The translations under genes and the position numbers were made by a program. Of a DNA stretch of 60,677 bases, positions 29,564 to 51,555 are shown in pieces (positions within the stretch are counted from its first letter, which is position 1; each line of letters starts with the position of its first letter). This stretch comes from Candidatus Eiseniibacteriota bacterium (GTDB taxonomy: Bacteria > Joyebacterota > Joyebacteria > Joyebacterales > Joyebacteraceae). The stretch lies in the NCBI GenBank assembly GCA_043819135.1, contig JBDRFG010000034.1, positions 1-60,677 of the forward strand, in the 5' to 3' direction. Under the pieces are notes generated by a model that did no database searches, was not told the DNA's origin, and saw nothing but the letters and a program-made list of their open reading frames with translations.

Positions 29564-30435
29564 TGCGCTTCTCCCGACACCTTCATGAATCGTATCAGTC
29601 CCAGGCTCAGCACGAACACGATGACGAATAGCGCGACCGTCAACGTCGAGCCGTAGCCCAGGTCGGCGTATCTGAAGAGAACCCTGTAGATGTAGATGGA
29701 GAGCGTCTCGGTGCGGGACGCGCCGCCGGTCAGCACCCAGATCAGGTCGAACACGCGGAAGGCGTCCATCGTTCTGAAGAGCACCGCAATGGCTATGAAC
29801 GGCTTGAGAAGCGGAAGGGTGATCGAGCGGAACACAGCCCAGCGCCCGGCCCCGTCGAGAGCCGCGGCCTCGTAGTACTGGGCGGGTATCGACTTGAGGC
29901 CGGCCAGGAGGATGATGGCGACGAAGGGCGTCGTCTTCCACACGTCGGCGAGGATAACGGACGTCATCGCGAGCCTGGCCCCAAGCCAGACGATGGGTTC
30001 TCCCATCAGTCCCAGCCGCTCGAGGACGGAGTTGACCAGTCCGACCCTGTCGTTCAGGAGCAGCGACCACAGGGTCGCGGCGACCACGGTCGGAAGCGCC
30101 CAGGGCACGATGAGGGACGCGTTCATCGCCATTCGTCCCCTGAGCATCCTGTGGAGGAGGAGGGCGGCCGCGAGCCCGAGCACCAGCTCGAGTCCCACGG
30201 AGACGACCGTGAAGTACGCCGTCTGCCCGAGGTCAGACCAGAACAGGTCGTCTGCGAGCAGCCGCGAGAAGTTCGAGAGCCCTGCGAACCCGCGTTCATC
30301 AGGGAACTTCAGATTGAAGTTGGTGAAGCTCAGGACGAACTGGGTGAGCACGGGGATCGCGCCCACGACGGTCACGAACGCGAGCGCGGGCGCAAGGAGC
30401 CAGAAGGCGAGGCGTGCTCTCTGTCTGGCGTTCAT
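29560..30435 (-). CDS. Carbohydrate ABC transporter permease (MalF-like)
   Basis: ADVWKTTPF, YEAAALDGA, FRVFD. Confidence 0.92.
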   Translation of the reverse strand: MNARQRARLAFWLLAPALAFVTVVGAIPVLTQFVLSFTNFNLKFPDERGFAGLSNFSRLLADDLFWSDLGQTAYFTVVSVGLELVLGLAAALLLHRMLRGRMAMNASLIVPWALPTVVAATLWSLLLNDRVGLVNSVLERLGLMGEPIVWLGARLAMTSVILADVWKTTPFVAIILLAGLKSIPAQYYEAAALDGAGRWAVFRSITLPLLKPFIAIAVLFRTMDAFRVFDLIWVLTGGASRTETLSIYIYRVLFRYADLGYGSTLTVALFVIVFVLSLGLIRFMKVSGEAQ

Positions 30436-30499
30436 CCGGTGTCGTCTCTCTCGGCCGCTTCCTACCCGGCCATGTTTTCCCTATCCGACCATGCTTTCT

Positions 30500-31747
30500 C
30501 TACTCGGCCATGATCTCCGCCAGTTCCCTCACGATGTTGGCGGCGGCCACCTCGGGCTCGATTCCGTACGTGAGAACCCGATGCACGTTCTCCTGGATGA
30601 TGTCCGACATGCGCGGGTAATGGGGCGATCTGGGTCTGTTGCGCGTGTTCTGGAAGACATCGAAGAAGCTCACGAAGTGCGGGTTCGCGGCGAGGACGTC
30701 GGGGTCGCCGTAGGTGCTCTTGAGTGTCGGCAGGTAGCCGCCCTTGATCGCGCGTTCCTTCATCGACTTCTCTCCGGTGATGAAGCGCAGGAAGTCGAGC
30801 GCCTCGTCCGGGTGCTCGCTGAAGCTCGACAGGGCCACGTTCCATCCGCCGATCGTCGAGTAGCTCGTGTTGCCCTCCGAGTGGGGCAGGGGCGCTATCC
30901 CGGCCAGGCCCTTTATCTTCGATCCCTCGCCCTCCGCCATGCTCCACGCGTACGGCCAGTTCCTGAGGAAGAGCGCCTGTCCCTCCGTGAACAATCTTCG
31001 CGAGTCTTCCTCTTTGTAGGTCAGCACGCCGCCGGGTGAGATGCCGCTGTCGAGGAAGCTGAGCATGAGCCCCAGAGCCTCCACGATGCCGCGCTCCGCG
31101 GCGTCGGGCCTCTCGATCAGCGTCTCGCCGTCTAGGTCGCCGCCGACGCTCCACAGGAACTCGAGGAAGTCGCAGACGAGTCCCTCGTAGCGGGCGCCCT
31201 GCCAGACGAACCCCTCCATTCCTCTGGAGCCGGCGATCTCGCGACAGGCCTCGCGGAAGTCCGTCCACGTCTCGGGCACCGGGAGTCCCGCCTCCTCCAG
31301 CAGGTCCCTGCGGTAGTAGAGCACGCCCGCGTCGGTAAACCACGGCACCGCGTAGAGCCTGCCCGCGTAAGTCACGCTTTGGAGCGGTCCCTCGAGGAAC
31401 ATGTCGTTCTGGATGTAGTCCGCGGGCAGTTCCACGATCCATCCCGCGCGCGCGAACTCCGCCGTCCAGATGACGTCGAGGCTGTAGAGGTCGATGTTCG
31501 ACTCACGCGCCGACAGGTAGGTCACGTAGGCGTCGTGCTGCGTGTCCGTGCTCGCAGGCATTGCCTGGAACTTGACCAGCACGCCCGGGTGGGCGGCGTT
31601 GTACTCGTCGACCAGCGCCTCGGTGGCGCCGGAGGGGTCGTTGCCGGCGGCGAAGACTATCTCGATGTCGCCGCCCTCGGGCGAAGAGCATCCGGTCACG
31701 GACAGAGCCACGATGCAGCAGAGTGCGATAATGGCCGTGGTGTTCAT
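30500..31747 (-). CDS. Sugar ABC transporter substrate-binding lipoprotein (trehalose/maltose-like)
   Basis: VTGC lipobox, DVIWTAEFA, YEGLVC, FLRNWPYAW. Confidence 0.9.
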   Translation of the reverse strand: MNTTAIIALCCIVALSVTGCSSPEGGDIEIVFAAGNDPSGATEALVDEYNAAHPGVLVKFQAMPASTDTQHDAYVTYLSARESNIDLYSLDVIWTAEFARAGWIVELPADYIQNDMFLEGPLQSVTYAGRLYAVPWFTDAGVLYYRRDLLEEAGLPVPETWTDFREACREIAGSRGMEGFVWQGARYEGLVCDFLEFLWSVGGDLDGETLIERPDAAERGIVEALGLMLSFLDSGISPGGVLTYKEEDSRRLFTEGQALFLRNWPYAWSMAEGEGSKIKGLAGIAPLPHSEGNTSYSTIGGWNVALSSFSEHPDEALDFLRFITGEKSMKERAIKGGYLPTLKSTYGDPDVLAANPHFVSFFDVFQNTRNRPRSPHYPRMSDIIQENVHRVLTYGIEPEVAAANIVRELAEIMAE

Positions 31748-31831
31748 TAGAGAAGGCCTCCTGGTTGCCGCGAGGGACCGACGTGCGCGCCGCGGCGCTC
31801 AAGGACCGCGGCTGAGACGTGAAGAACACTC

Positions 31832-31860
31832 ATAGTAGGCTCTGACGCATCCGGTGTCAA
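31832..31860 (-). promoter_or_regulatory. Sigma70 promoter of the sugar ABC operon
   Basis: Minus strand TTGACA-17-TACTAT. Confidence 0.7.
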
Positions 31861-32054
31861 TTGTAGCATCGTGCGATGGAGCATCGTGCGACTTGGGTAT
31901 GCCCGCGGTTCATGCTATATTCACCTAAGGGTTGCTCGCGCGTCACCGTTCGATGGTGCGTCGCGACGCGACCGGACCTCGGACGGCGTCCCGCACACTT
32001 CGGTCGCCGTCCCACCGACGCGCCAAAGAGGAGCCGGCAGCTCCGGAGGTGAGC

Positions 32055-33209
32055 ATGACCAACAGGGAACGAGTCCGCATCCGTTTCGGACCGAAGGCCT
32101 CAGGTCGACCAGCGTGGTCCGCCGTCGTGGCGGCACTTGCCCTGGCTCTGAGCGGCCTCAGCGCGACCGCGGCGGCCGAGGTCACCGTTCACGACCCCGG
32201 CGAGGCGTTCGCCGGCTACAACCTCCGCGTCTCTCACTATCCGCCCGGTGCAGTTCTCATGGACATGGACGGCAACACCCTGCACGAGTGGAAGTGCCGG
32301 TTCGTCGATGCGTTCCCGGGAGTAGACGTTCCCGATGAACCCGGGTTCTCCGATCGTTGGACGAACGCCCGTCTTCTTCCGAACGGTGACGTCCTTGGAA
32401 TTCTCGGCGGGCTGGGGTTGGTCAGGCTCGACCGAACCTCGCGCATCCTCTGGGCGCACGAGGGCGGGGAACACGATGACCTTGCGGTCACGGAGGACGG
32501 CGCGATCTACGTTCTCGGCAGCGCGTGGAACAAGGTGAACTGGGTGAATCAGAAGAATCCCGTCCTGGAGGACTACGTGCTGGTCCTGGGTGCGAACGGT
32601 GATGTCATGAATCGAGTGTCGCTTCTCAGCGCGATCTCGGCCTCGGACTTCAGCAACATTACGAAGACCGCGCACATGAGCAGATCCGATCATGTCTTGC
32701 GCGCGAACTCGCTGCAGGTTCTCGACGGGAGCTTCTCGGACAGGATCTCGAACTTCGCTAAGGGGAACGTCCTCGTGTCGCTGCGCGGACTCGACACGAT
32801 AGCCGTGCTGGACCTGGAGTCAAAGACCCTGCTCTGGACTCAGTTCGGTATGTGGTTGGGCCAGCTCGACTCGACCCTACTGCCCGGCGGGGACGTGCTC
32901 CTCCTCGAGTATCCGGACGGCGACCCGAGGGTGATCGAGTTCGACCCGGTCACCATGGAAGTGAAGTGGACGTACGAACGGGACTCCGGAGGTTTCGTCG
33001 ACAATCAATGGGGTGGCGCAGTCCAGCGTCTTCCCAACGGCAACACGCTTATCTCCGAGTCCGGTCGTGGCAGGGCGTTCGAAGTGACGCCGCGCGGCGA
33101 TGTGGTCTGGGAGTATGCGAGCCCCATGACCGAAGGCGCACGGACCCCGGCGCCGTTCGAATTGACCAGAATAATGCCCGAGTTCCCCATGGACTGGCTC
33201 GGCAACTGA
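32055..33209 (+). CDS. Arylsulfotransferase (ASST)-family beta-propeller, catalytic His residues apparently substituted
   Basis: DMDG..LHEW, LLPNGD, EHDDL, RANSL, QLDS, RLPNGNTLISES..GRAFEVT..G.VVWEY. Confidence 0.8.
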   Translation: MTNRERVRIRFGPKASGRPAWSAVVAALALALSGLSATAAAEVTVHDPGEAFAGYNLRVSHYPPGAVLMDMDGNTLHEWKCRFVDAFPGVDVPDEPGFSDRWTNARLLPNGDVLGILGGLGLVRLDRTSRILWAHEGGEHDDLAVTEDGAIYVLGSAWNKVNWVNQKNPVLEDYVLVLGANGDVMNRVSLLSAISASDFSNITKTAHMSRSDHVLRANSLQVLDGSFSDRISNFAKGNVLVSLRGLDTIAVLDLESKTLLWTQFGMWLGQLDSTLLPGGDVLLLEYPDGDPRVIEFDPVTMEVKWTYERDSGGFVDNQWGGAVQRLPNGNTLISESGRGRAFEVTPRGDVVWEYASPMTEGARTPAPFELTRIMPEFPMDWLGN

Positions 33210-41208: not shown

Positions 41209-42075
41209 CTACCGGTAGTACAGGGACTTGATGCGGCCCCAGGACGTGTCCTCGACCGGCGTTGTACCCACGAACCAGTCGTAGATCTTCCCGATTATCC
41301 TGTCGAACACCTCTGGAGAGGCGCCCGCAAGCTCGATCCCGGACCAGACGGTCCTGAAGGTGACCGTCTCGTTGTAGATGACCACGCCGTCCTGCGCAGC
41401 CTCATCGAGATAGAAGCCGCAGCGAGCCGTCGCGGTCGGGTCCGCGCAGTCGGGGAAGAACGGGTTGCCGATGAACACATTGGCCGAGTCGAGAGTCGCG
41501 CTCTCACCCTCGAAGATACTCTCGGAGGAGCCTGTGATGTTGGCCGTGTTCGGTCCCCAGAGCACGTCCTGATAGCATTGGTCCAACCCGAGGTAGTCGC
41601 GCGGGAATCCACTGCACACACCCATCGTCGGATGCGCGCCGTACATGTAGTCCTGCCCCACAATAAGCAGGTTCCCTCCCGAATCGAGGTAGCTCGCAAG
41701 AACCGCCTCATCTGCCGGGTCAATGTTCTGCGGAGCCGACCACCAGTTCTCGCCGGTCAGGACGACGACGATCGGGTAGTTGTTGCCAGTGAGTTCCGGC
41801 GGGAAGTTGATCGACCCACCCGAAACCTCGACCGCGCACGTCGCGATCGGAGTCGCCCCCGCGGTAGCGAACGCGGAGTAGTAGAGCGGGGTCGGGTCGG
41901 AGAAACCCGGATTGGCGTCGGTGTCGAGGCAGATAAGCACCTCGGCTTCGACCAGCTGGATCTCGTTGAACTGAAACTCCTGCTGAGCAGTGTCGGGCTT
42001 GCCCAGTCTGGAATCAGTCGCGAACGCCGGAACCGCCAGTGCCGCGACGAACACGATCATTAGCACTCTCGTCAT
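41209..42075 (-). CDS. Secreted hypothetical protein with C-terminal SWGRIKSLYYR tail
   Basis: GGAGG RBS, signal peptide, L..YLDSGGNLL..GQD motif, TPVEDTSWGRIKSLYYR. Confidence 0.75.
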   Translation of the reverse strand: MTRVLMIVFVAALAVPAFATDSRLGKPDTAQQEFQFNEIQLVEAEVLICLDTDANPGFSDPTPLYYSAFATAGATPIATCAVEVSGGSINFPPELTGNNYPIVVVLTGENWWSAPQNIDPADEAVLASYLDSGGNLLIVGQDYMYGAHPTMGVCSGFPRDYLGLDQCYQDVLWGPNTANITGSSESIFEGESATLDSANVFIGNPFFPDCADPTATARCGFYLDEAAQDGVVIYNETVTFRTVWSGIELAGASPEVFDRIIGKIYDWFVGTTPVEDTSWGRIKSLYYR

Positions 42076-42358
42076 TACATACCTCCGGCTTCGGGACAAA
42101 CAGGCACACGCGCTGCTCCCGCTGTCGACGCCCGCGCCACCCGCGAGCACACCCAATGACGCTAGTATACCATAGCTCCCCGAGGCAGTCAAGCAGCCGA
42201 CCTGTGTCACCCCCCCCTGTGTCACCCAGCGCGGCTGGCCGCCTCGACAGGAGGTCGACCGCGTGATAGCATCTCGGTGCTTGCCGCACACCCGGTGTAC
42301 AGGTTGTGGCCGACGATTCGCGGGGAAAGCCGATTTGACCTCCCTCTGCTCAGCACGG

Positions 42359-45040
42359 ATGCGAATCCCGTGTGCCCTTGTCCTCACGCTGTTCGGGGCG
42401 ACGTTCGCCGCGTACGCGCTCACGGCGACCCGGTCCTTCTACTGGGGCGACTCCGCCGAATTCGTCGCCGCGGCCACGACTCTCGGCATCGCGCACCCTC
42501 CCGGGTATCCTCTCTACACGCTGCTGGGAGCTCTGGCGGTTCGTCTGCCGTTCGGAACTCCGTTCCTGCGAATGTCGCTTCTCTCGGCGCTCTTTGCCTC
42601 GGGGGCAGCGGCGGTGGCCGCGCTCATCGTGTGGGTGACGACGGGCCCATCGCTTCAGACGATGGGGAGGAGGGCTCTCCCGCGGGCGGCCGGCGCCCTC
42701 TTCGCGGGCGCAACCCTTGCGTCTGGGACTACATACTGGTCACAGGCCGTGGTGCCCGAGGTCCACTCGCTGTCGGCCTTCCTTGCGCTGTCGGCCCTGT
42801 TGTTGTTCGCCATCTGGAGCCGGACCCGCGGCAGTAACGAAACGAGACCGCCGTCCGACGCCGGTGATCCGCCGCGGTTCCTGCTCCGGGATGGTCCGGT
42901 CGTCCTGATGGGGCTCGTTCTGGGGCTGGCGCTGGCGCATCATCTTACGGTCGCGTTCCTTGCTCTGCCGCTCGCGATAGCCCTGTTCAATTTCGGGAGG
43001 AGACCGTCGTTCCGGGCGGCGCTCTCGGCCGCCGGGCTTCTCGCTCTTGGCCTGTCCCTCTACGCCTACCTGCCCATGCGCGCGGCGCACGATCCGGCGG
43101 TCCTCTGGACCCCCATCGGAACGTGGCGGGAGCTTCTCGACCACATCACGGGGGTGCAGTACGCGCCGCTCCTGTTCGGAGCGCCACTCGTGGAGGTCTC
43201 GCACAAGATGACGGTCTTCGCGTCGGGCATCCCCCGGGAAGTCACGTGGGTCGCGCTGGCTCTTGCGGTTCCCGGATTTGTGGCGTTCTTCCGGACGACG
43301 CGCGTCGTCGCCATCGTTCTTGTCTGCTGGAGCCTCCTTGTTCTCGGGCACGCGGCCGTCTATCGGATTCCCGACATCGCCAGCTACTACGTCCCGGTGT
43401 ATGCGGCGCTGGCGATCGCCGGTGGCCTCGGTCTGTGCGCCGTGGCATCGGCGCCCTGGTGGAAGCGCGCGGCTCCGCCCATAGCGTGGCTCGCGCTCGC
43501 GGCCGCCGTGGCGATACCGGTGATGCAGGCCAGGAACGGCTGGTCGGCGAACGACCGGAGCGTGAGAGACGACGGAAAGGTCTACCTGGAGCGCATGCTC
43601 GACTCCATCGCGCCCGGCGGCGTAGTGCTGACGATGACCGACCGCGTCCTGTTCCCGCTGTCTTACGCGCGCTACGTCGACCGGACCCGCGAGGACTTCT
43701 CGATAATCTGCATTCGGGAGTACGCGCCGCACCTCGAACAGTGGTGTCCAGGAGTTCGCTTCCCGGCGGAGGACCAGCTCTGTTCCAGCTTCGAGAGCTG
43801 GTCGGCACCCCCGACCGAGGCCGCGCGCGAGTCGATCCCCGTCGGGAACTATCTCCCACTGCTTGTCTCCATGAACGTGGCTGAACGGCGTTTCTACGCC
43901 GACGCCGACCTGGGGCGGAGGGTGTTCCCGGATCGGACTCTGCCGCGCGGTCTTCTTGTCGAGATAGTCGCAAGCCCCGTCGACTCGATCCCTGCCGAGG
44001 AGTGGGCCGAGCACGATGCCTTCTGGGACCTTGTCCTGCGAGAGGTGGGGTCCGAGCCGTCTCCTGACGAGCGAACCGCCGAGGCATACGCGAAGACGCT
44101 CGCGGAGCAGGGGATGCTGATGATCGACAGAGGGGACATCGACTCCGCCGTCGATGCACTCGAAAGGGCGTGCGCCCTGGCGCCGGGCCTGCCGCTCTGC
44201 CACAGCAATCTCGGGGTCGCGTACGACAAGAGCGGGAGACGCGAGGACGGCGTCGCGGAGTTCGAGACCGCCATCGCCCTCAACCCCGGGCTTGCGGAGC
44301 CGCATCACAACATCGCGGTTGCCGCTCGGCGGAGCGGCGACGTGGCTCGAGCGAAGAGGGAACTCGAGGCGGCGATCGCGCTGCAGCCGCGGAGCCCCTC
44401 CTTCAGGATGGAACTCGGCGGACTCCTGGAAGAGCAGTCCGAGTTCGAAGGTGCGGAGCTGATGTTCAGGAGCGCCGCGGCCCTCTCCTCAGATGAATGG
44501 GGCGCGAGCCTCGCCTACGGTGACTTCCTCAGGCGCAGGAGACGGTACTCGGAGGCCGTGGCGGCGTACCAACGCGCGGAGGAACTCAGGCCGAATTCTT
44601 CCGGCGCGCTCCGCGGGTTGGGTCGCTGCTACTGGGCTTTCGAAGACAGAGAGCGGACTCTCGAAGTGATGCGACGGCTCGTGGAGCTGCAACCGCACAA
44701 CCCGTCCGTCAGGTTCGATCTCGCCGCGATGCTGCATCGTTCGGGACGGGGTCGCGAAGCGGCGCTTCTGCTCGATGATGTGATCCGCATCCTCCCGAGC
44801 ATGTGGGAGGCGAGGGCGCTCAAGGCAAGCATACTGGCTGAGCTGGGGCGATACTGGGAGGCGCGCAACCTCTTCGAGGAGGCCGCGGATCTCGGTGCCT
44901 CGGGCGACGGCTTCTGGGAGAGATGGGTGGCGATGGAAGCGGACCTGGGTGAAGATGGACGCGAGGGGGCGGTTCGAGAGCGTGCGGCCTCGTCGAGCGA
45001 CACGCGAGGTGACGCCGGGTCACGCGCTGTTGCAGAGTGA
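42359..45040 (+). CDS. DUF2723 (TMEM260-like GT-C) membrane protein with C-terminal TPRs
   Basis: WGDSAEF...LGIAHPPGYPLY, WSQAV..EV, LAHH, Y.YLP.RA; many TM helices; TPR region. Confidence 0.85.
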   Translation: MRIPCALVLTLFGATFAAYALTATRSFYWGDSAEFVAAATTLGIAHPPGYPLYTLLGALAVRLPFGTPFLRMSLLSALFASGAAAVAALIVWVTTGPSLQTMGRRALPRAAGALFAGATLASGTTYWSQAVVPEVHSLSAFLALSALLLFAIWSRTRGSNETRPPSDAGDPPRFLLRDGPVVLMGLVLGLALAHHLTVAFLALPLAIALFNFGRRPSFRAALSAAGLLALGLSLYAYLPMRAAHDPAVLWTPIGTWRELLDHITGVQYAPLLFGAPLVEVSHKMTVFASGIPREVTWVALALAVPGFVAFFRTTRVVAIVLVCWSLLVLGHAAVYRIPDIASYYVPVYAALAIAGGLGLCAVASAPWWKRAAPPIAWLALAAAVAIPVMQARNGWSANDRSVRDDGKVYLERMLDSIAPGGVVLTMTDRVLFPLSYARYVDRTREDFSIICIREYAPHLEQWCPGVRFPAEDQLCSSFESWSAPPTEAARESIPVGNYLPLLVSMNVAERRFYADADLGRRVFPDRTLPRGLLVEIVASPVDSIPAEEWAEHDAFWDLVLREVGSEPSPDERTAEAYAKTLAEQGMLMIDRGDIDSAVDALERACALAPGLPLCHSNLGVAYDKSGRREDGVAEFETAIALNPGLAEPHHNIAVAARRSGDVARAKRELEAAIALQPRSPSFRMELGGLLEEQSEFEGAELMFRSAAALSSDEWGASLAYGDFLRRRRRYSEAVAAYQRAEELRPNSSGALRGLGRCYWAFEDRERTLEVMRRLVELQPHNPSVRFDLAAMLHRSGRGREAALLLDDVIRILPSMWEARALKASILAELGRYWEARNLFEEAADLGASGDGFWERWVAMEADLGEDGREGAVRERAASSSDTRGDAGSRAVAE

Positions 45041-45147: not shown

Positions 45148-47751
45148 ATGAATACCGACGGGCACGCTGGCCGTGATGCGCCGGCCGGCACGCAGCGACA
45201 GGTCCGCTTCACGAGCAGGGAGATCGCTCTCCTTGGTCTGATGGCGGCGCTGTGGGGTGTGATAGAGATCACCGTCGGCGGGATGATCAAGACGTGGCAC
45301 ATTCCGTTCGGCGGCTCGTTCCTCTCGACTTTCGGTGTCGTCATATTGCTCACGGCGCGTGGCAGCGTGCCGCGCAGGTGGTCGTCGATACTGATCGGGG
45401 TTGTCGCCGCCGGGGTGCGTCTCGCCTCCGGGTTCGGCGGCGCCGTGTTCGCGGCGATCGGCATAGTCGCCGAGGCGCTCATCGTGGAGCTCGTGCTCAG
45501 CCTCTGGCCGAGTTCGCGGCTGCGGGCTCGTCTGCTTGCCGGTACTCTGGCCGTGATGTGGGCGCTGGTCCATCCGTTCGTCGTGCAGGGATACATGGCG
45601 GGCCTGGGGCCGGCGAAGGTCTATTCGGTTACCATCGGGCTGATCGCCGGGCAGGAGTCTCTCGGTTCCGGACAGGCCCGGTTGGTATTTCTTTCGTTGA
45701 TGCTGGTTCACGCGATTCTGGGGGTTTGCGCCGTGCTCTTCGTTGACAGGATCATCCTGGCTCCATCCGCGCGCGCGGACGGTTCCGCTGGGAAGGGGGA
45801 CCGAGGTGGCAGCGCAGGCGGGTCGTCCAACGGAGTCGGAAGAACCGGACTCCTGGTCGTGCTCGCGCTCGCGCTGTTGCTGACGGCAGGCGTCCCGGAC
45901 GCTGTCGCGCAGCAGTCGGAGTCGTCGCGTGTGGCCGCCGGCGTCGGCCCCGCGGGAACCTACTGGTTGCTTCCGGAGTTCACCGTCGTCGGCTCGAGAC
46001 TCTTCGGGCCCTACACGGTGTTCGAGCTGGAGTCGGAGGATGTCCAGGACACGGGCTCCGACAACCTGTCCGACGCTCTCAGCCTGGTGCCGGGAATGAT
46101 CGTGCGGACGAACTCACGCGGCGAGGCCAAGCTTTCGACCCGCGGGCTTGCTGAGCGCGAGATCGTCGTTCTGGTGGACGGAGTACCCATCTCGGACCCC
46201 TACAACGGCTCCGTCAACACCGGCATGATCCTGAGCGGCGCCATAGGCAAGGTCAGCGTGACCAAGGGCCCGGTGGCGAGCGTCTACGGGGCGAACGCGC
46301 TCGGGGGAGTCATCGAGGTGACGACCGCGGGGAGCAGTCGAACGGGTCTCAGCTACCTTCTGTCCACGGGCAGCGACGGCCAGTACTCCGGCTTCGTATC
46401 CGGCGGAGGCAGCCTCGGCGCCGTCCACCTCACCGGCGGGCTGGCCGCCAACGGGGGGAACGGTTTCGGGCTTCCCGAGTCGTACGGCGCTGAGCGATGG
46501 GAAGACGGCGGACGGCGGGACTACTCAGGTCGTGAGGACATTTTCGCCTGGGGTCGTGCCTCGTGGAAGTTGAGCCGCACCGCGGACGCCTCCATCTCGA
46601 TGCAGGTTGCCGACGGAAGGCGCGACGTCCCAGCTTCGACGAGCGCCGATCGCCCGCGGTTCTGGAGTTTCCCTTACTGGCGGGAGACCCGCACCATCGG
46701 GTCGGTGGGATGGCAGCCGAGCGACGCGCTTCACGTCGAGGGCAAGTTCTTCTACGGCACCAACGATAATCAGCTGGCCGCCTATTCCGACTTCGAGCGT
46801 ACCGACCGACGGTGGCTGTCGAGCGTGTCGAACCGCGTCTACGGCGGATACGTATACACCGAACTCGACGCGTTCTCGGGTCAGCGTCTCTCGGGGGGAC
46901 TGAACGTCAAGCGCGATGTCGCCTCCCTGCAGTCCGATATCGGAGAGGAGTGGCGTGACCACGAGGCCATCACCATGTCACTCTTCGGACAAGACGTGGT
47001 GACGCTGGGCCGTGATGACCTCGTGGCCGTCGCCATCAACGCCGACGCCATGGCAGGAGAGGAGATCTCGCTCGTCAGGGTCAATCCGCAGGCCTCCTGG
47101 AGCAGGCGACTGCCGGCCGACCTCACGCTCCGCCTGCTCGGCGGAATGAAGACGCGTTTCCCGACGCTCAAGGAGTGGTTCAGTCCCGATATCGGCAACC
47201 CTGATCTCAGGCCCGAGATGAGCACCTCGATCGAAGCCGAGATCATCAAGCGAACGTCGCGTGGTTCCAGGATTTCGCTCCTCGCGTACGAGCAATGGGT
47301 CGACGACATGATCGTGTCGTCGGGCGGTGGAGATCCCTGCCGGAACGTCGGGTCCGTGACATCGTGGGGAACGGAGCTGGGCGTGCGGCACAATCTCTCG
47401 AGTGAGCTGGACGTCAACCTGAGCTTTGCGATGACGTCCGCCCGCGACACCGAAACGGGCGCCAGCGTGCCTCTTGTGCCGAAGACCATGGTGGCGGCAC
47501 TGGCCACATACACGCGCGGTCCGGCGACCTGCCTGGCGCGGGTCACCCGCGTGGGGTCTCGGCCCGTGTCGAGCGGCGACGGGTTACCGCCATACGTCCT
47601 GATGGATCTGAGAGGCATCTTCGAGACCGCCTGGGGTGACTTCTTCGTGGGTGCCGAGAACGTTCTAGACGTCCTGTACGAGGACGAAGGTGGGTTCCCG
47701 CAGTCCGGGCGAAGGTTCGAGTTCGGCGTCATGAGGGAACTCCAGCGTTAG
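45148..47751 (+). CDS. Fusion of ECF-S-component-like membrane domain, internal signal peptide and TonB-dependent receptor
   Basis: About 6 TM helices (ALWGVIE..G...IPF.G); plug VLVDGVP, V.KGP.AS.YGANALGGVI; barrel GNPDL.PE, ENVLD..YE...GFP..GR; alternative GTG start at 45037. Confidence 0.8.
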   Translation: MNTDGHAGRDAPAGTQRQVRFTSREIALLGLMAALWGVIEITVGGMIKTWHIPFGGSFLSTFGVVILLTARGSVPRRWSSILIGVVAAGVRLASGFGGAVFAAIGIVAEALIVELVLSLWPSSRLRARLLAGTLAVMWALVHPFVVQGYMAGLGPAKVYSVTIGLIAGQESLGSGQARLVFLSLMLVHAILGVCAVLFVDRIILAPSARADGSAGKGDRGGSAGGSSNGVGRTGLLVVLALALLLTAGVPDAVAQQSESSRVAAGVGPAGTYWLLPEFTVVGSRLFGPYTVFELESEDVQDTGSDNLSDALSLVPGMIVRTNSRGEAKLSTRGLAEREIVVLVDGVPISDPYNGSVNTGMILSGAIGKVSVTKGPVASVYGANALGGVIEVTTAGSSRTGLSYLLSTGSDGQYSGFVSGGGSLGAVHLTGGLAANGGNGFGLPESYGAERWEDGGRRDYSGREDIFAWGRASWKLSRTADASISMQVADGRRDVPASTSADRPRFWSFPYWRETRTIGSVGWQPSDALHVEGKFFYGTNDNQLAAYSDFERTDRRWLSSVSNRVYGGYVYTELDAFSGQRLSGGLNVKRDVASLQSDIGEEWRDHEAITMSLFGQDVVTLGRDDLVAVAINADAMAGEEISLVRVNPQASWSRRLPADLTLRLLGGMKTRFPTLKEWFSPDIGNPDLRPEMSTSIEAEIIKRTSRGSRISLLAYEQWVDDMIVSSGGGDPCRNVGSVTSWGTELGVRHNLSSELDVNLSFAMTSARDTETGASVPLVPKTMVAALATYTRGPATCLARVTRVGSRPVSSGDGLPPYVLMDLRGIFETAWGDFFVGAENVLDVLYEDEGGFPQSGRRFEFGVMRELQR

Positions 47752-47946: not shown

Positions 47947-48537
47947 ATGATCGAGGGAATGCATCCTTCCGGTCGCCGCCTGGCGCGGATGGCGATCGCA
48001 GCTGTTCTTCTGGCGGCAGTTCCTCTGGCGAGTCACGCCGCGGAAGCGCTCAGGCGTGAGGCAGAGGATTACCCGACGTACGGATCGTACGACATCGGCG
48101 GCTACGACATCACGGAGTCCTACTGCAGCTACGCGAGCCAGGGTCTCGCCGTCGATGGTCTGGACATTCCGGACGAGTGGTTCAAGCTCAAGGTGACCTT
48201 TCCGAGCGCCGGCTGCTACACCTCGTGGATCGACTACCAGAGCGCGTACGGTGACACGGTCGAGTTAGCGGTCAGGCTGCTGGATTACCCGACGCCCGGG
48301 GACGAGCTCAGGGCCGACTACGTGCTGATCGACGGCTTCGGCTTCGGCTGAGGCCCTCTGCTCAGCGCTGCCGGGAGCAGCGAGTTTTGCGTGGAGGCTG
48401 GAACCTACTTCCTGCTGGTGCAGCACGTCTCCGGTGGGATGGGTCGCGTCGACTTCGTCGAGTTCGAACCGACCACGCCGGTGGAAGCGATCACCTGGGG
48501 TCGCATTAAAAGCATGTATAACCAGCCCGCTCCTTAG
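47947..48537 (+). CDS. Candidate secreted selenoprotein (CBM6/35-like beta-sandwich, in-frame UGA at 48349) with TWGRIKSMY tail
   Basis: Signal peptide, EAEDY; DGFGFG-TGA-GPLLSAAGSSEFCVEAGTYFLLVQHVSGGMGRVDFVEFEPTTPVEAITWGRIKSMYNQPAP-TAG; SECIS-like hairpin. Confidence 0.75.
48366..48382 (+). promoter_or_regulatory. Candidate bacterial SECIS element
   Basis: cgctgc-CGGGA-gcagcg; G-containing loop about 20 nt after the UGA. Confidence 0.6.
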
Positions 48538-48585: not shown

Positions 48586-49791
48586 ATGCGCCATCTCCTT
48601 CTGACGCTCGCCGTGCTGGCACTGGCGGGCGTCGCTGCTGCCGACGACGCGATCGTGGCTCGCACCACGATCGGCGACGTCCCCCGAACATACACGCATT
48701 TCATGAACGCGCAGGAAGCCGCCCTCTGCCGTGCTAACGCCGCGGCCGGGGGCATCTCCGCGTACTTTTTCAATCCCGCGGTCGTCGCTGATATCTCGGG
48801 CATATCCGGCCAGGCCACCATGCGCGTCAACGCGAAGTCGCGGAACTACCTGCCCGAGGGCGACGACTACCTGGATGCGTCCGACGACGTCTTCCTTTTC
48901 TCTCAGGCCGTTGCGGCCAAACGCAATGAGATGTACGCTCTTGGATTCGGCTACTCCTGCCCGTCCTACAGGAATCTCGAGTTGAGCGGCCGCGTGGATG
49001 GCGCCTCCTACCAGGGCGTTTTCCAGGGAGGTCTGCGCTTCTTCGAAGTGCTCGCGGCAACGAGGATCGGCTCCGAAGGCCAGGGGGCGATAGGGATCGC
49101 CGCCGGGATAGCCAGCCTGAACGAGAGCGCGACCGAGAAGGGAACGGAGCAGAGGTACATTCGCACGGCCGAGATGGACGGGATCGCGACATCGGTGGCC
49201 GTGGGCTTGACCTTCGACGCCACGGAGCGGCTGGTGTTCGGTGTGGGCTACCGCTTCAGTACGGCCTTCGATGTGGAAGGCGAGTGGCACACGGAACTGC
49301 CCGGCGACGGAGTTTCCACGGGCACGACGAAGACCGAGCCGGTCGCGGTGGTCGGTGCGCGCTACACGCCCCTCGACAACTACACCATCTACGCAAGCTA
49401 CATTCACGAGGGCTGGACCAAGGCGGAGTCCTCGTTCGCGGCCTACTACGATACCGACGAGTGCGCGGACTGCAACGAGAACGAACATCGCAGAGACGAA
49501 TTCGGGAGCGCGCTCGGGACGGCGGCAATAGGTGGGGAGGGGACCGTGCTCGACGGGAGACTCACCGTTCGAGCCGGCTTCTCGATGCCGATAGGTTCTG
49601 ACCTCGACAATGCGGTAGAGCCCGAGTACAGAGAACTCGTTCCGGAATACGCGGCCGGCGTGGGCGGGACGTTGAGGTTCGAAGAGTATTCGGTAGAGGC
49701 CGCCTTCGTGCGGGAGCTGTACGCGGACGGGCCGGAGAGCGAGCAGGTGGTCAACCACGGTATCTACGTGACCGCGGGGTACGACTTCTGA
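48586..49791 (+). CDS. Outer-membrane beta-barrel (FadL/OmpP1/PorV-like)
   Basis: Signal peptide, SAYFFNPA motif, amphipathic strands, C-terminal YVTAGYDF. Confidence 0.7.
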   Translation: MRHLLLTLAVLALAGVAAADDAIVARTTIGDVPRTYTHFMNAQEAALCRANAAAGGISAYFFNPAVVADISGISGQATMRVNAKSRNYLPEGDDYLDASDDVFLFSQAVAAKRNEMYALGFGYSCPSYRNLELSGRVDGASYQGVFQGGLRFFEVLAATRIGSEGQGAIGIAAGIASLNESATEKGTEQRYIRTAEMDGIATSVAVGLTFDATERLVFGVGYRFSTAFDVEGEWHTELPGDGVSTGTTKTEPVAVVGARYTPLDNYTIYASYIHEGWTKAESSFAAYYDTDECADCNENEHRRDEFGSALGTAAIGGEGTVLDGRLTVRAGFSMPIGSDLDNAVEPEYRELVPEYAAGVGGTLRFEEYSVEAAFVRELYADGPESEQVVNHGIYVTAGYDF

Positions 49792-50888: not shown

Positions 50889-51090
50889 TCCCCAGGCCCG
50901 TTCCCCCATTGACCAAGCGCCGCCTGGGCCGGCGCGGACGGGAGAGGACTGCCCGTGGCGTCCGGTGTGCATTGCTGCCAGCTTCGCGCTCCCGGTGTGG
51001 AGAAGCGGCATCCGCGTGACGCTCGTCCGCTAGTGCGGAGTCCGGGGGCACATCAGAAGCGTGTCTGTGCGTTCGAGAGGGAGGTGCATC

Positions 51091-51555
51091 ATGAGAACAT
51101 CCTTCTTCGCCATCTTCGCGGCTGCAGTACTCCTCGTCGCGTCACCCGCCTGGGCACAGGACTGCAGTGAGGAAGTCGTGCTCGAGACGTTCGACGGCAC
51201 GATCCTGATCTCCCACATTGAGGCGTTGTACAACTGCTGCTGCACGGTAGGCAGCGAGGTGCTTCGGGACGGTTTCTGGATCGACGTCCACGAGTACGAG
51301 CACCTCACCATGGGCGGATGCGATTGCCTGTGCTGCTTCGGGGTGGAGGTCGAGATCGCGGGGCTCGAGTCCGGCGTATACACCGTGAGCATCATCAAGC
51401 ACACCGAGCACGGGAGCGTCGAACTGGTAGGAACGTGGCCGGTCACCGTGACCGGGTCGTGTCCTCCGCTGATCCGCACGACATACGTGCCCTGCGACGA
51501 GACGGGCATGGCGGATGAGGGGACCTGGGGCACGATCAAGGCGCTCTACAGGTAG
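51091..51555 (+). CDS. Small Cys-rich secreted protein with C-terminal TWGTIKALYR tail
   Basis: GGAGG RBS, signal peptide, YNCC, GCDCLC. Confidence 0.75.
   Translation: MRTSFFAIFAAAVLLVASPAWAQDCSEEVVLETFDGTILISHIEALYNCCCTVGSEVLRDGFWIDVHEYEHLTMGGCDCLCCFGVEVEIAGLESGVYTVSIIKHTEHGSVELVGTWPVTVTGSCPPLIRTTYVPCDETGMADEGTWGTIKALYR

Follow-up and report, generated by a model that had tools for sequence, protein, structure and literature searches.

Described systems and the fusion

A bacterial protein is normally directed to a single membrane by a signal at its N terminus. FbcH of Bradyrhizobium japonicum is reportedly a precursor of cytochrome b and cytochrome c1, which are released from it by cleavage. 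There, one bacterial gene encodes a polytopic inner-membrane protein and, behind a signal peptide that lies inside the chain and has an A-x-A site, an exported protein. The same order is found in the open reading frame (ORF) described here, at 45148..47751 of a 60,677 nt contig of a Candidatus Eiseniibacteriota bacterium (GCA_043819135.1, JBDRFG010000034.1; the whole analysed stretch is referred to as the window), in which an energy-coupling factor (ECF) S-component is joined to a TonB-dependent receptor. Both products of FbcH stay in the inner membrane as one complex and their cleavage has been shown, whereas the second product of the fusion is an outer-membrane barrel bound for the second membrane, and its cleavage we infer.

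With regard to function, the pair BtuB and BtuM is similar: a TonB-dependent receptor and an S-fold inner-membrane transporter of diderm bacteria, linked by gene neighbourhood, but encoded by separate genes and with BtuM acting as a solitary protein in hosts that have no ECF module (PMC6072759). In contrast, EcfT scored over its cut-off in all 31 genomes of the Ca. Eisenbacteria family to which the window belongs, BtuM is a distant match to the fold (Z 7.1), and the cargo is probably different. The third likeness is to group II ECF transporters, as defined in PMC5997447, and to YkoE, namely a six-helix S fold, a small-xxx-small motif in helix 1 and an S gene unlinked from the shared EcfAA'T. 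Known S-components end at helix 6 according to the S-fold survey PMC11109136, whereas the fused one continues into a signal peptide and a receptor. In function, the fusion is comparable to BtuB together with an inner-membrane transporter of the S fold, and it is probably made like FbcH; it is neither BtuB by score nor BtuM, and matches no Pfam S family.

Literature searches, mostly of listings and the first lines of abstracts, returned no description of an S-component/receptor fusion or of a polyprotein divided between inner and outer membrane. The main text of PMC11109136 contains none of the words "TonB", "barrel" and "molybd", and its supplements could list such fusions. The fusion is real, conserved and apparently undescribed, and it is likely that one precursor is cut by signal peptidase I and its halves are sorted to two membranes.

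Architecture of the fused reading frame

A single frame without stops runs from the ATG at 45148 to the TAG at 47751 and encodes 867 amino acids (aa), with the following features:

45148..47751, + strand: whole ORF of the fusion (867 aa), made up of ECF S-component, linker, signal-peptide-like internal segment and TonB-dependent receptor
45214..45756, + strand: ECF S-component fold with six membrane helices, residues 23-203 (structure model and fold search)
45235..45249, + strand: helix-1 motif G30-x-x-x-A34, at the position of the AxxxA EcfT-docking motif (alignment columns and complex model)
45766..45840, + strand: variable Gly/Ser/Arg-rich linker, predicted to be cytoplasmic (low identity, K+R charge)
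45841..45909, + strand: signal-peptide-like internal segment, residues 232-254, with hydrophobic h-region and A-x-A (hydropathy, column conservation)
after 45909, + strand: predicted signal peptidase I cut, after A254 (A-x-A site)
45970..45993, + strand: TonB-box-like stretch, residues 275-282 (E277 and V280 invariant in 58 rows; model strand 271-275), which we take to be the TonB box from its motif
46012..46311, + strand: plug domain of the TonB-dependent receptor, residues 289-388 (PF07715)
46345..47745, + strand: outer-membrane beta-barrel of 22 strands, residues 400-866 (AlphaFold2 model)

The preliminary description of this ORF, made from the DNA letters alone, had placed a Gly/Ser linker and the stretch RTGLL...DAVA, followed by QQ, at the junction (45841-45909), and both were found there. 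The full-length AlphaFold2 model (58 homologues) has the six membrane helices at 23-203 plus a short helix at 155-167, then a low-confidence region at 202-288 (predicted local distance difference test, pLDDT, <50) with one helix inside it at 232-246, then the plug and finally 22 barrel strands at 400-866; owing to the low pLDDT at 202-288 it is uninformative on the relative placement of the two halves.

Modelled alone from 108 sequences, the S domain reached a pLDDT of 92.7. VIA-align against 48,161 chains gave 5edl, presumably YkoE, as best match (Z 15.4, root mean square deviation 2.9 over 166 residues, 14% identity), and 14 of the top 15 rows were ECF S-components or ECF complexes, with FolT at Z 11.0 and BioY at Z 10.7; the best non-ECF row scored 9.8 over 90 residues, and BtuM followed far down. 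Foldseek agreed weakly (5edl, TM 0.58, E 0.017). Judged by its modelled fold, the N-terminal part is an ECF S-component, which bears out the earlier reading of about 210 helical residues as ECF-S-like. This relationship appears in structure searches: the S domain had no Pfam match at E 0.1 (nor was there any Pfam hit in the first 280 residues), residues 1-231 matched no NCBIfam family at E 0.5, no PDB sequence matched the S domain at E 1, and the profiles of named S families (PF12822, PF09605, BioY and others) did not match the fusion.

The C-terminal part is a complete TonB-dependent receptor with a 22-strand barrel, in line with the plug and barrel of the preliminary description. At residues 289-388 the plug scored 71.9 bits with PF07715 (cut-off 23.9; E 7e-20), and the top Foldseek rows of the full-length model were BtuB and OprC (E ~1e-27). 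All NCBIfam receptor families stayed far under their cut-offs, the best being TIGR01779 BtuB with 86.7 bits against 599.7. This receptor has no cleavable signal peptide at an N terminus; its signal-like segment is the internal one at residues 232-254. The fused frame, both folds and the conserved signal-like junction are thus real, and the observation is confirmed.

Conservation of the join

A stop-free match across the junction was found in 26 of the 31 family genomes, the window's own included, and in six of eight genera. Of these, 21 were full-length and five ended at contig edges, with identities of 55-91%. Two genomes of one genus (G012 and G018, 95-97% complete) had no match to the fusion, and two others without a stop-free join (G027 and G029) are 73% and 57% complete. 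A homologue search with residues 18-215 as query among proteins of 476-1518 aa yielded 58 further proteins with the N-domain, every one of them plug-bearing, 57 with lengths of 833-886 aa and one of 479 aa. Among shorter proteins (119-382 aa) the N-domain search returned five hits: the protein of genome G008 (see below), two close relatives that are partial or short, and two remote ones. A split orthologue of the pair was not found in any of the 31 genomes, although the same family-wide search plainly reveals split forms at a sister locus. The situation that the preliminary description had named as fatal, relatives that always carry two genes, is therefore the reverse of what exists in this family.

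From the end of the S domain to the TonB box, 25 loci showed 12 different lengths (62-86 residues), in frame in every case. Sequence support across the join came from another study's contig, which spans 45557-45968 with ten substitutions and no gaps (depth ~3). Against this fourfold evidence, namely joins in 26 of 31 genomes, 12 in-frame lengths, 58 additional plug-bearing proteins and an independent gap-free contig, the possibility that two ordinary genes were joined through a lost stop codon or a misassembly is practically negligible, and we rejected it.

Linker and probable internal signal peptide

Mean pairwise identity among the 58 homologues is 0.63-0.90 for the six S helices, 0.72 for the plug and 0.61 for the barrel, but 0.26 for the linker and 0.28 for the h-region. 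The h-region is hydrophobic in all rows (mean hydropathy 2.5, lowest 1.8), and the alignment columns behind it hold A252 in 55, A254 in 57 and Q255 in 47 of the 58 rows (D in 8), with position 253 variable. Small residues at -3 and -1 are the pattern of signal peptidase I substrates. In its column statistics, the internal segment evolves like a signal peptide, keeping hydrophobicity and A-x-A while the sequence drifts. The mean number of K+R per loop (3.3/1.1/2.8/0.0/3.0/1.4/6.7, the last for residues 200-233, then 1.1 past the h-region) predicts a six-helix protein whose N terminus and linker are on the cytoplasmic side, with the receptor on the outer side. Genes for signal peptidase I and TonB are present in the genome.

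Proposed docking on the ECF module

S-components dock on EcfT by an AxxxA motif in helix 1, as described in PMC11109136. The corresponding motif of the fusion is G30xxxA34 rather than a strict AxxxA, with G30 in 53 of 58 rows (five gaps) and A34 in all 58. When modelled as a complex with the host EcfT, the S domain reached a score of 0.61, and the best of three controls 0.00; the mark applied is reached by 116 of 157 solved pairs and by 2 of 215 mismatched pairs. Contacts agreed to at least 70%, the partner pLDDT was at least 69, and the closest contacts with EcfT involved G30, A33 and A34. In genome G000, EcfT adjoins a gene that is presumably truA-like. Tandem ATPases (C25:46736-48393) score best with the ECF ATPase family, the first with 291 bits against a cut-off of 315. 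These models suggest that the S-component uses the stand-alone EcfAA'T module of the host. BioY occurs in one of the 31 genomes, which is uninformative.

Other S-components were noticed in the family. PF12822 matched in 30 of 31 genomes; a stand-alone PF12822 S-component lies directly behind an FmdE-family gene (G000:C95:14237-15339; L090:5238-6340), and in genus g4 and genome G013 an S-component is fused to an EcfT-like domain within an rnf/nqr-like operon (L088:8500-9741; G010:C27).

A sister locus and split relatives

Following a weak match to PF12822 within long frames, we found another pair of S-component and outer-membrane barrel in the same family, unrelated to the first. Of 28 sister loci examined, two lacked the S end and one matched the wrong motif; the remaining 25 comprised 15 split and 10 fused pairs:

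G000:C119:29683-30420 and 30417-32291 (L107): split sister pair, barrel gene with its own signal peptide
L086:7333-9813 and L087:549-3011, plus eight more: fused sister pairs

Where the pair is split, the barrel gene begins with a signal peptide of its own, and its start often overlaps the preceding stop. In the fusions, this signal peptide stands in frame behind the S domain and the A-x-A site is kept. On a tree of the 25 sister S domains, which is unrooted as to direction and in which long branches meet, the split/fused label needs four changes, at least three of them forced by well-supported branches. The co-existence of both forms implies that fusion can turn an N-terminal signal peptide into an internal one without destroying it, and that this happened repeatedly. 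The best PDB sequence match of the sister S-component was 6fnp (ECF-CbrT; weak, E 0.052), and its barrel matched no Pfam family at E 0.01. The sister pair adjoins genes which we take to be histidine-utilisation-like and comEA-like.

In other phyla, receptors related to the fused one (133-199 bits to the fused-receptor profile) are encoded by separate genes with normal signal peptides, directly upstream of related S genes:

L033, L169, L173, L186 and L192 (Bacteroidota, a deltaproteobacterial metagenome-assembled genome, and G043): split relatives, a receptor gene followed by a gene for S, membrane domain and NTPase_1

They resemble the fusion in having a related receptor and a related S domain in one operon, but differ from it in that there are two genes, receptor first, that the receptor has a normal N-terminal signal peptide, and that the S domain brings membrane and NTPase domains along in place of EcfAA'T. 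Because four of the five were located through the S gene, the linkage of receptor and S in them is partly a matter of selection.

The S genes of these relatives touch on a large unannotated family (1418 representatives at E 0.001) that combines an S-like with a second membrane domain, often plus NTPase_1, and occurs in Bacteroidota, Marinimicrobia and Acidobacteria; its usual neighbours are mobA-like or DUF364 genes, and it possibly constitutes a one-chain importer. Members are:

L033:8336-10096, L169:3037-4785 and L192:7962-9689: S-like plus membrane domain

A likeness to EcfT of the membrane domain behind S in distant homologues was considered and dropped (HHalign not significant, probability 0.2, E 0.26).

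How two proteins could arise from one frame

We propose that the product of the gene is a single precursor which serves transport across both membranes, one step in each. The six S helices would span the inner membrane so that both of their ends face the cytoplasm, where the linker stays. The seventh helix would then act as an internal Sec signal and thread the receptor into the periplasm, where signal peptidase I would cut after A254. The receptor, released with Gln255 at its start, would move to the outer membrane and work with TonB-ExbBD, while the S-component, retaining linker and signal helix unless these are trimmed, would dock via helix 1 on the stand-alone EcfA/EcfA'/EcfT. The weakest step concerns the cargo, which would most likely be the Mo/W-pterin cofactor or a piece of it, for the pterin-dependent aldehyde:ferredoxin oxidoreductase (AOR). 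What marks an FbcH-like polyprotein was found here: one frame, a conserved internal h-region with A-x-A, and no second start in 15 of 25 loci. The polyprotein reading of the preliminary description is thereby supported.

The receptor could instead be made mostly from an internal or non-canonical start, the full-length chain supplying only the S-component while its receptor half is cut off or degraded. For such a hidden start speak 10 of the 25 loci, which have an in-frame ATG or GTG in the linker or at the start of the h-region, and, at the sister locus, the recent G004 fusion, which keeps an ATG with a purine-rich leader, as well as G014 and G022, which keep a Met before the h-region (G010 and others keep none). 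But 15 of the 25 loci have no ATG, GTG or TTG between the S domain and the h-region. The window is among them, in agreement with the earlier statement that it has no clear internal start, and its sole near-cognate codon is a CTG within the h-region. Moreover, the codons of the other ten are scattered over unrelated offsets of 0 to 30 residues, and in four loci they occur only at the h-region start, leaving no n-region. The S domain lacks a separate stop, so that translation yields the fused chain whether or not a second start is used. We regard this explanation as quite unlikely. Even less likely is an uncut bridge across the envelope, with the seventh helix as a permanent anchor tying the outer-membrane receptor to the S-component and channelling cargo. 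The fusion is kept over six genera and proximity might be selected, which would fit a bridge, but the predicted cut is just 19-34 residues away from the TonB box (42 rows scored; 16 of the 58 were dropped for motif mismatch), or ~7-12 nm when stretched, and the periplasm is ~20 nm wide. The uncut chain is thus hard to place. In addition, spacer and linker vary widely (identity 0.26-0.35) around an A-x-A site that hardly changes, and the sister pair occurs both split and fused. S-components furthermore topple in the membrane, and C-terminal extensions have been proposed to hinder toppling (PMC11109136).

Signal peptidase cleavage of a single precursor remains the likely course, and a number of observations weigh against the proposal as a whole. 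Genome G008, 100% complete, encodes the N-domain only:

L031:7856-8548 (G008:C34): S domain alone with its own stop, same neighbours as the fusion, receptor half absent

Three loci with start codons in the linker or at the h-region start show strong Shine-Dalgarno-like pairing, while the true start scored weakly (-3.5) by the same measure, which used a generic anti-Shine-Dalgarno sequence and did not separate true from false starts. In two control windows of this GC-rich protein, small-x-Ala triplets turned up in 24 of 42 and in 42 of 58 cases. With triplets so frequent, only column conservation counts as evidence for the site; the cleavage-site picker was biased towards Ala, and the alignment columns of all 58 rows were relied on instead. 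Receptors of this type typically carry a C-terminal aromatic beta-signal. The barrel ends in a predicted strand (856-866) with ELQR and no terminal aromatic, while most relatives end in L-Y-x, with Tyr second from last, and two split relatives also lack a terminal aromatic. Finally, because ECF complexes have already been solved, the pass of the S domain-EcfT model may reflect likeness to, or memory of, these complexes rather than binding.

The cargo

Provided that the polyprotein is cut, the "cofactor or metal" of the preliminary description can be narrowed to the Mo/W-pterin cofactor as the leading candidate, which we favour tentatively and would not yet call probable. Chelated molybdate or tungstate, a corrinoid, and some other compound each appear improbable to the same degree, and haem/iron slightly more so. 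AFOR_N was detected in 24 of the 31 family genomes (23 if two lower-GC contigs of G018 are contamination), and the Fe-S and DxxG motifs, which we assume to be those of AOR, were kept in all seven full-length copies read. Since MoaC and MoeA (over its cut-off) were each found in one of the 31 genomes, both times G010, cofactor synthesis seems to be missing in the family. Of 22 hits to a paralogous S gene (HHalign 95.4%, E 1.7e-8), 20 share a contig with AOR, and in seven of the eight loci read the gene adjoins mobB. Genomes G012 and G018, a single lineage, have neither the fusion nor this paralogue. Of 80 distant loci, 30 have a MobA-like gene as neighbour, 10 a Mo-oxidoreductase nearby and 3 XdhC, and in 2 the receptor is preceded by a ModE-like regulator, the MobA and ModE scores being under their cut-offs; at least one of these four kinds of gene occurred in 39 of the 80 loci, or in 46 if DUF364 is counted as well.

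Several of our results speak against this cofactor. The paralogue in the AOR operon could be the true cofactor importer. The 80 distant loci stem mostly from related Bacteroidales, and their counts carry no background rate; queA is near in 20 of them. MoeA is present in 36 of the first 50 distant carriers by rank, which probably make their own cofactor, and the whole S family as a marker of cofactor auxotrophs was rejected on this count. The fusion's own neighbours (an mnmA-like gene, the FadL-like barrel and the TMEM260/TPR protein) are not Mo genes. Hints at the family level point elsewhere, namely the best receptor score for BtuB, the YkoE fold, and the nearest Atlas clusters, of whose members 23-33% have PF09605, which we treat as a lead only.

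Some of these hints belong to the alternative that the same cut polyprotein serves a corrinoid, by a route like BtuB plus BtuM or CbrT, or haem/iron. It is favoured by the NCBIfam score (TIGR01779 BtuB, 86.7 bits), by BtuB coming first in Foldseek, by several JGI records in which homologues are named cobalamin receptor, by the methylmalonyl-CoA mutase of the genome and, for corrinoid or haem, by the PF09605 share. Yet this score is far under the cut-off of 599.7, BtuM ranks low in the fold search, the mutase was present in two of five genomes tested with two fusion carriers lacking it, and it is the sister S-component that is more CbrT-like. Neither the window nor ten related loci contained a riboswitch at the Rfam gathering score (one tRNA-Sec apart). 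Taken together, a corrinoid or haem/iron route is rather unlikely, though it deserves more weight than a hidden start or an uncut bridge, and the Mo/W-pterin cofactor stays in the lead.

Two loci with genes for this cofactor were seen in the family. In G000:C123:6239-9491 (L238), an operon combines AOR with mobB, a ferredoxin-like gene and a paralogous S-component that stands alone; independently of the fusion, this operon is a strong candidate for salvage of the cofactor. G010, the only family genome with moaC and moeA (C22:230203-233604; L246), keeps the fusion too, and the gene beside moaC/moeA presumably resembles MOT1-type molybdate transporters. PBP_like_2 was matched as well, by proteins that may bind molybdate, tungstate or phosphate.

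Neighbouring genes

Directly upstream of the fusion, 42263-45040 of the window encodes a TMEM260-like O-mannosyltransferase domain with TPR repeats, present in four of nine loci compared. Downstream, a FadL/OMPP1-like outer-membrane barrel (48586-49791) was found in all nine; in the window, a small secreted protein that belongs to no known family (47947-48351) lies before it. Additionally, secreted proteins at 41209-42075 and 51061-51555 (- strand) share a similar short basic C-terminal tail, W-G-x-I-K-x-L-Y, likely a sorting motif of this lineage.

Implications

If the two halves do reach different membranes, Sec and signal peptidase I would handle a signal 230 residues into the chain, behind six membrane helices, and the barrel would be passed on to the outer membrane. 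The sister locus offers split and fused versions of one pair for direct comparison. The most far-reaching proposal, which we advance tentatively and which may well not hold as a whole, is that a single gene, split by signal peptidase I, supplies both membrane steps for salvage of the intact Mo/W-pterin cofactor in bacteria that do not make it, that the same plan was reached several times at a second locus, and that genes for inner- and outer-membrane proteins are free to fuse and to separate because signal peptides are retained. Our literature searches found no description of a bacterial Mo/W cofactor importer; the cofactor-uptake papers among the results concerned nematodes only. A survey counted 305 bacteria with molybdoenzymes and no cofactor pathway, and the explanations it offered are new biosynthetic parts or metal-free enzymes (PMC6147048). 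If the cargo is the Mo/W-pterin cofactor, the fusion would provide a testable answer to this puzzle of molybdoenzymes without a pathway.

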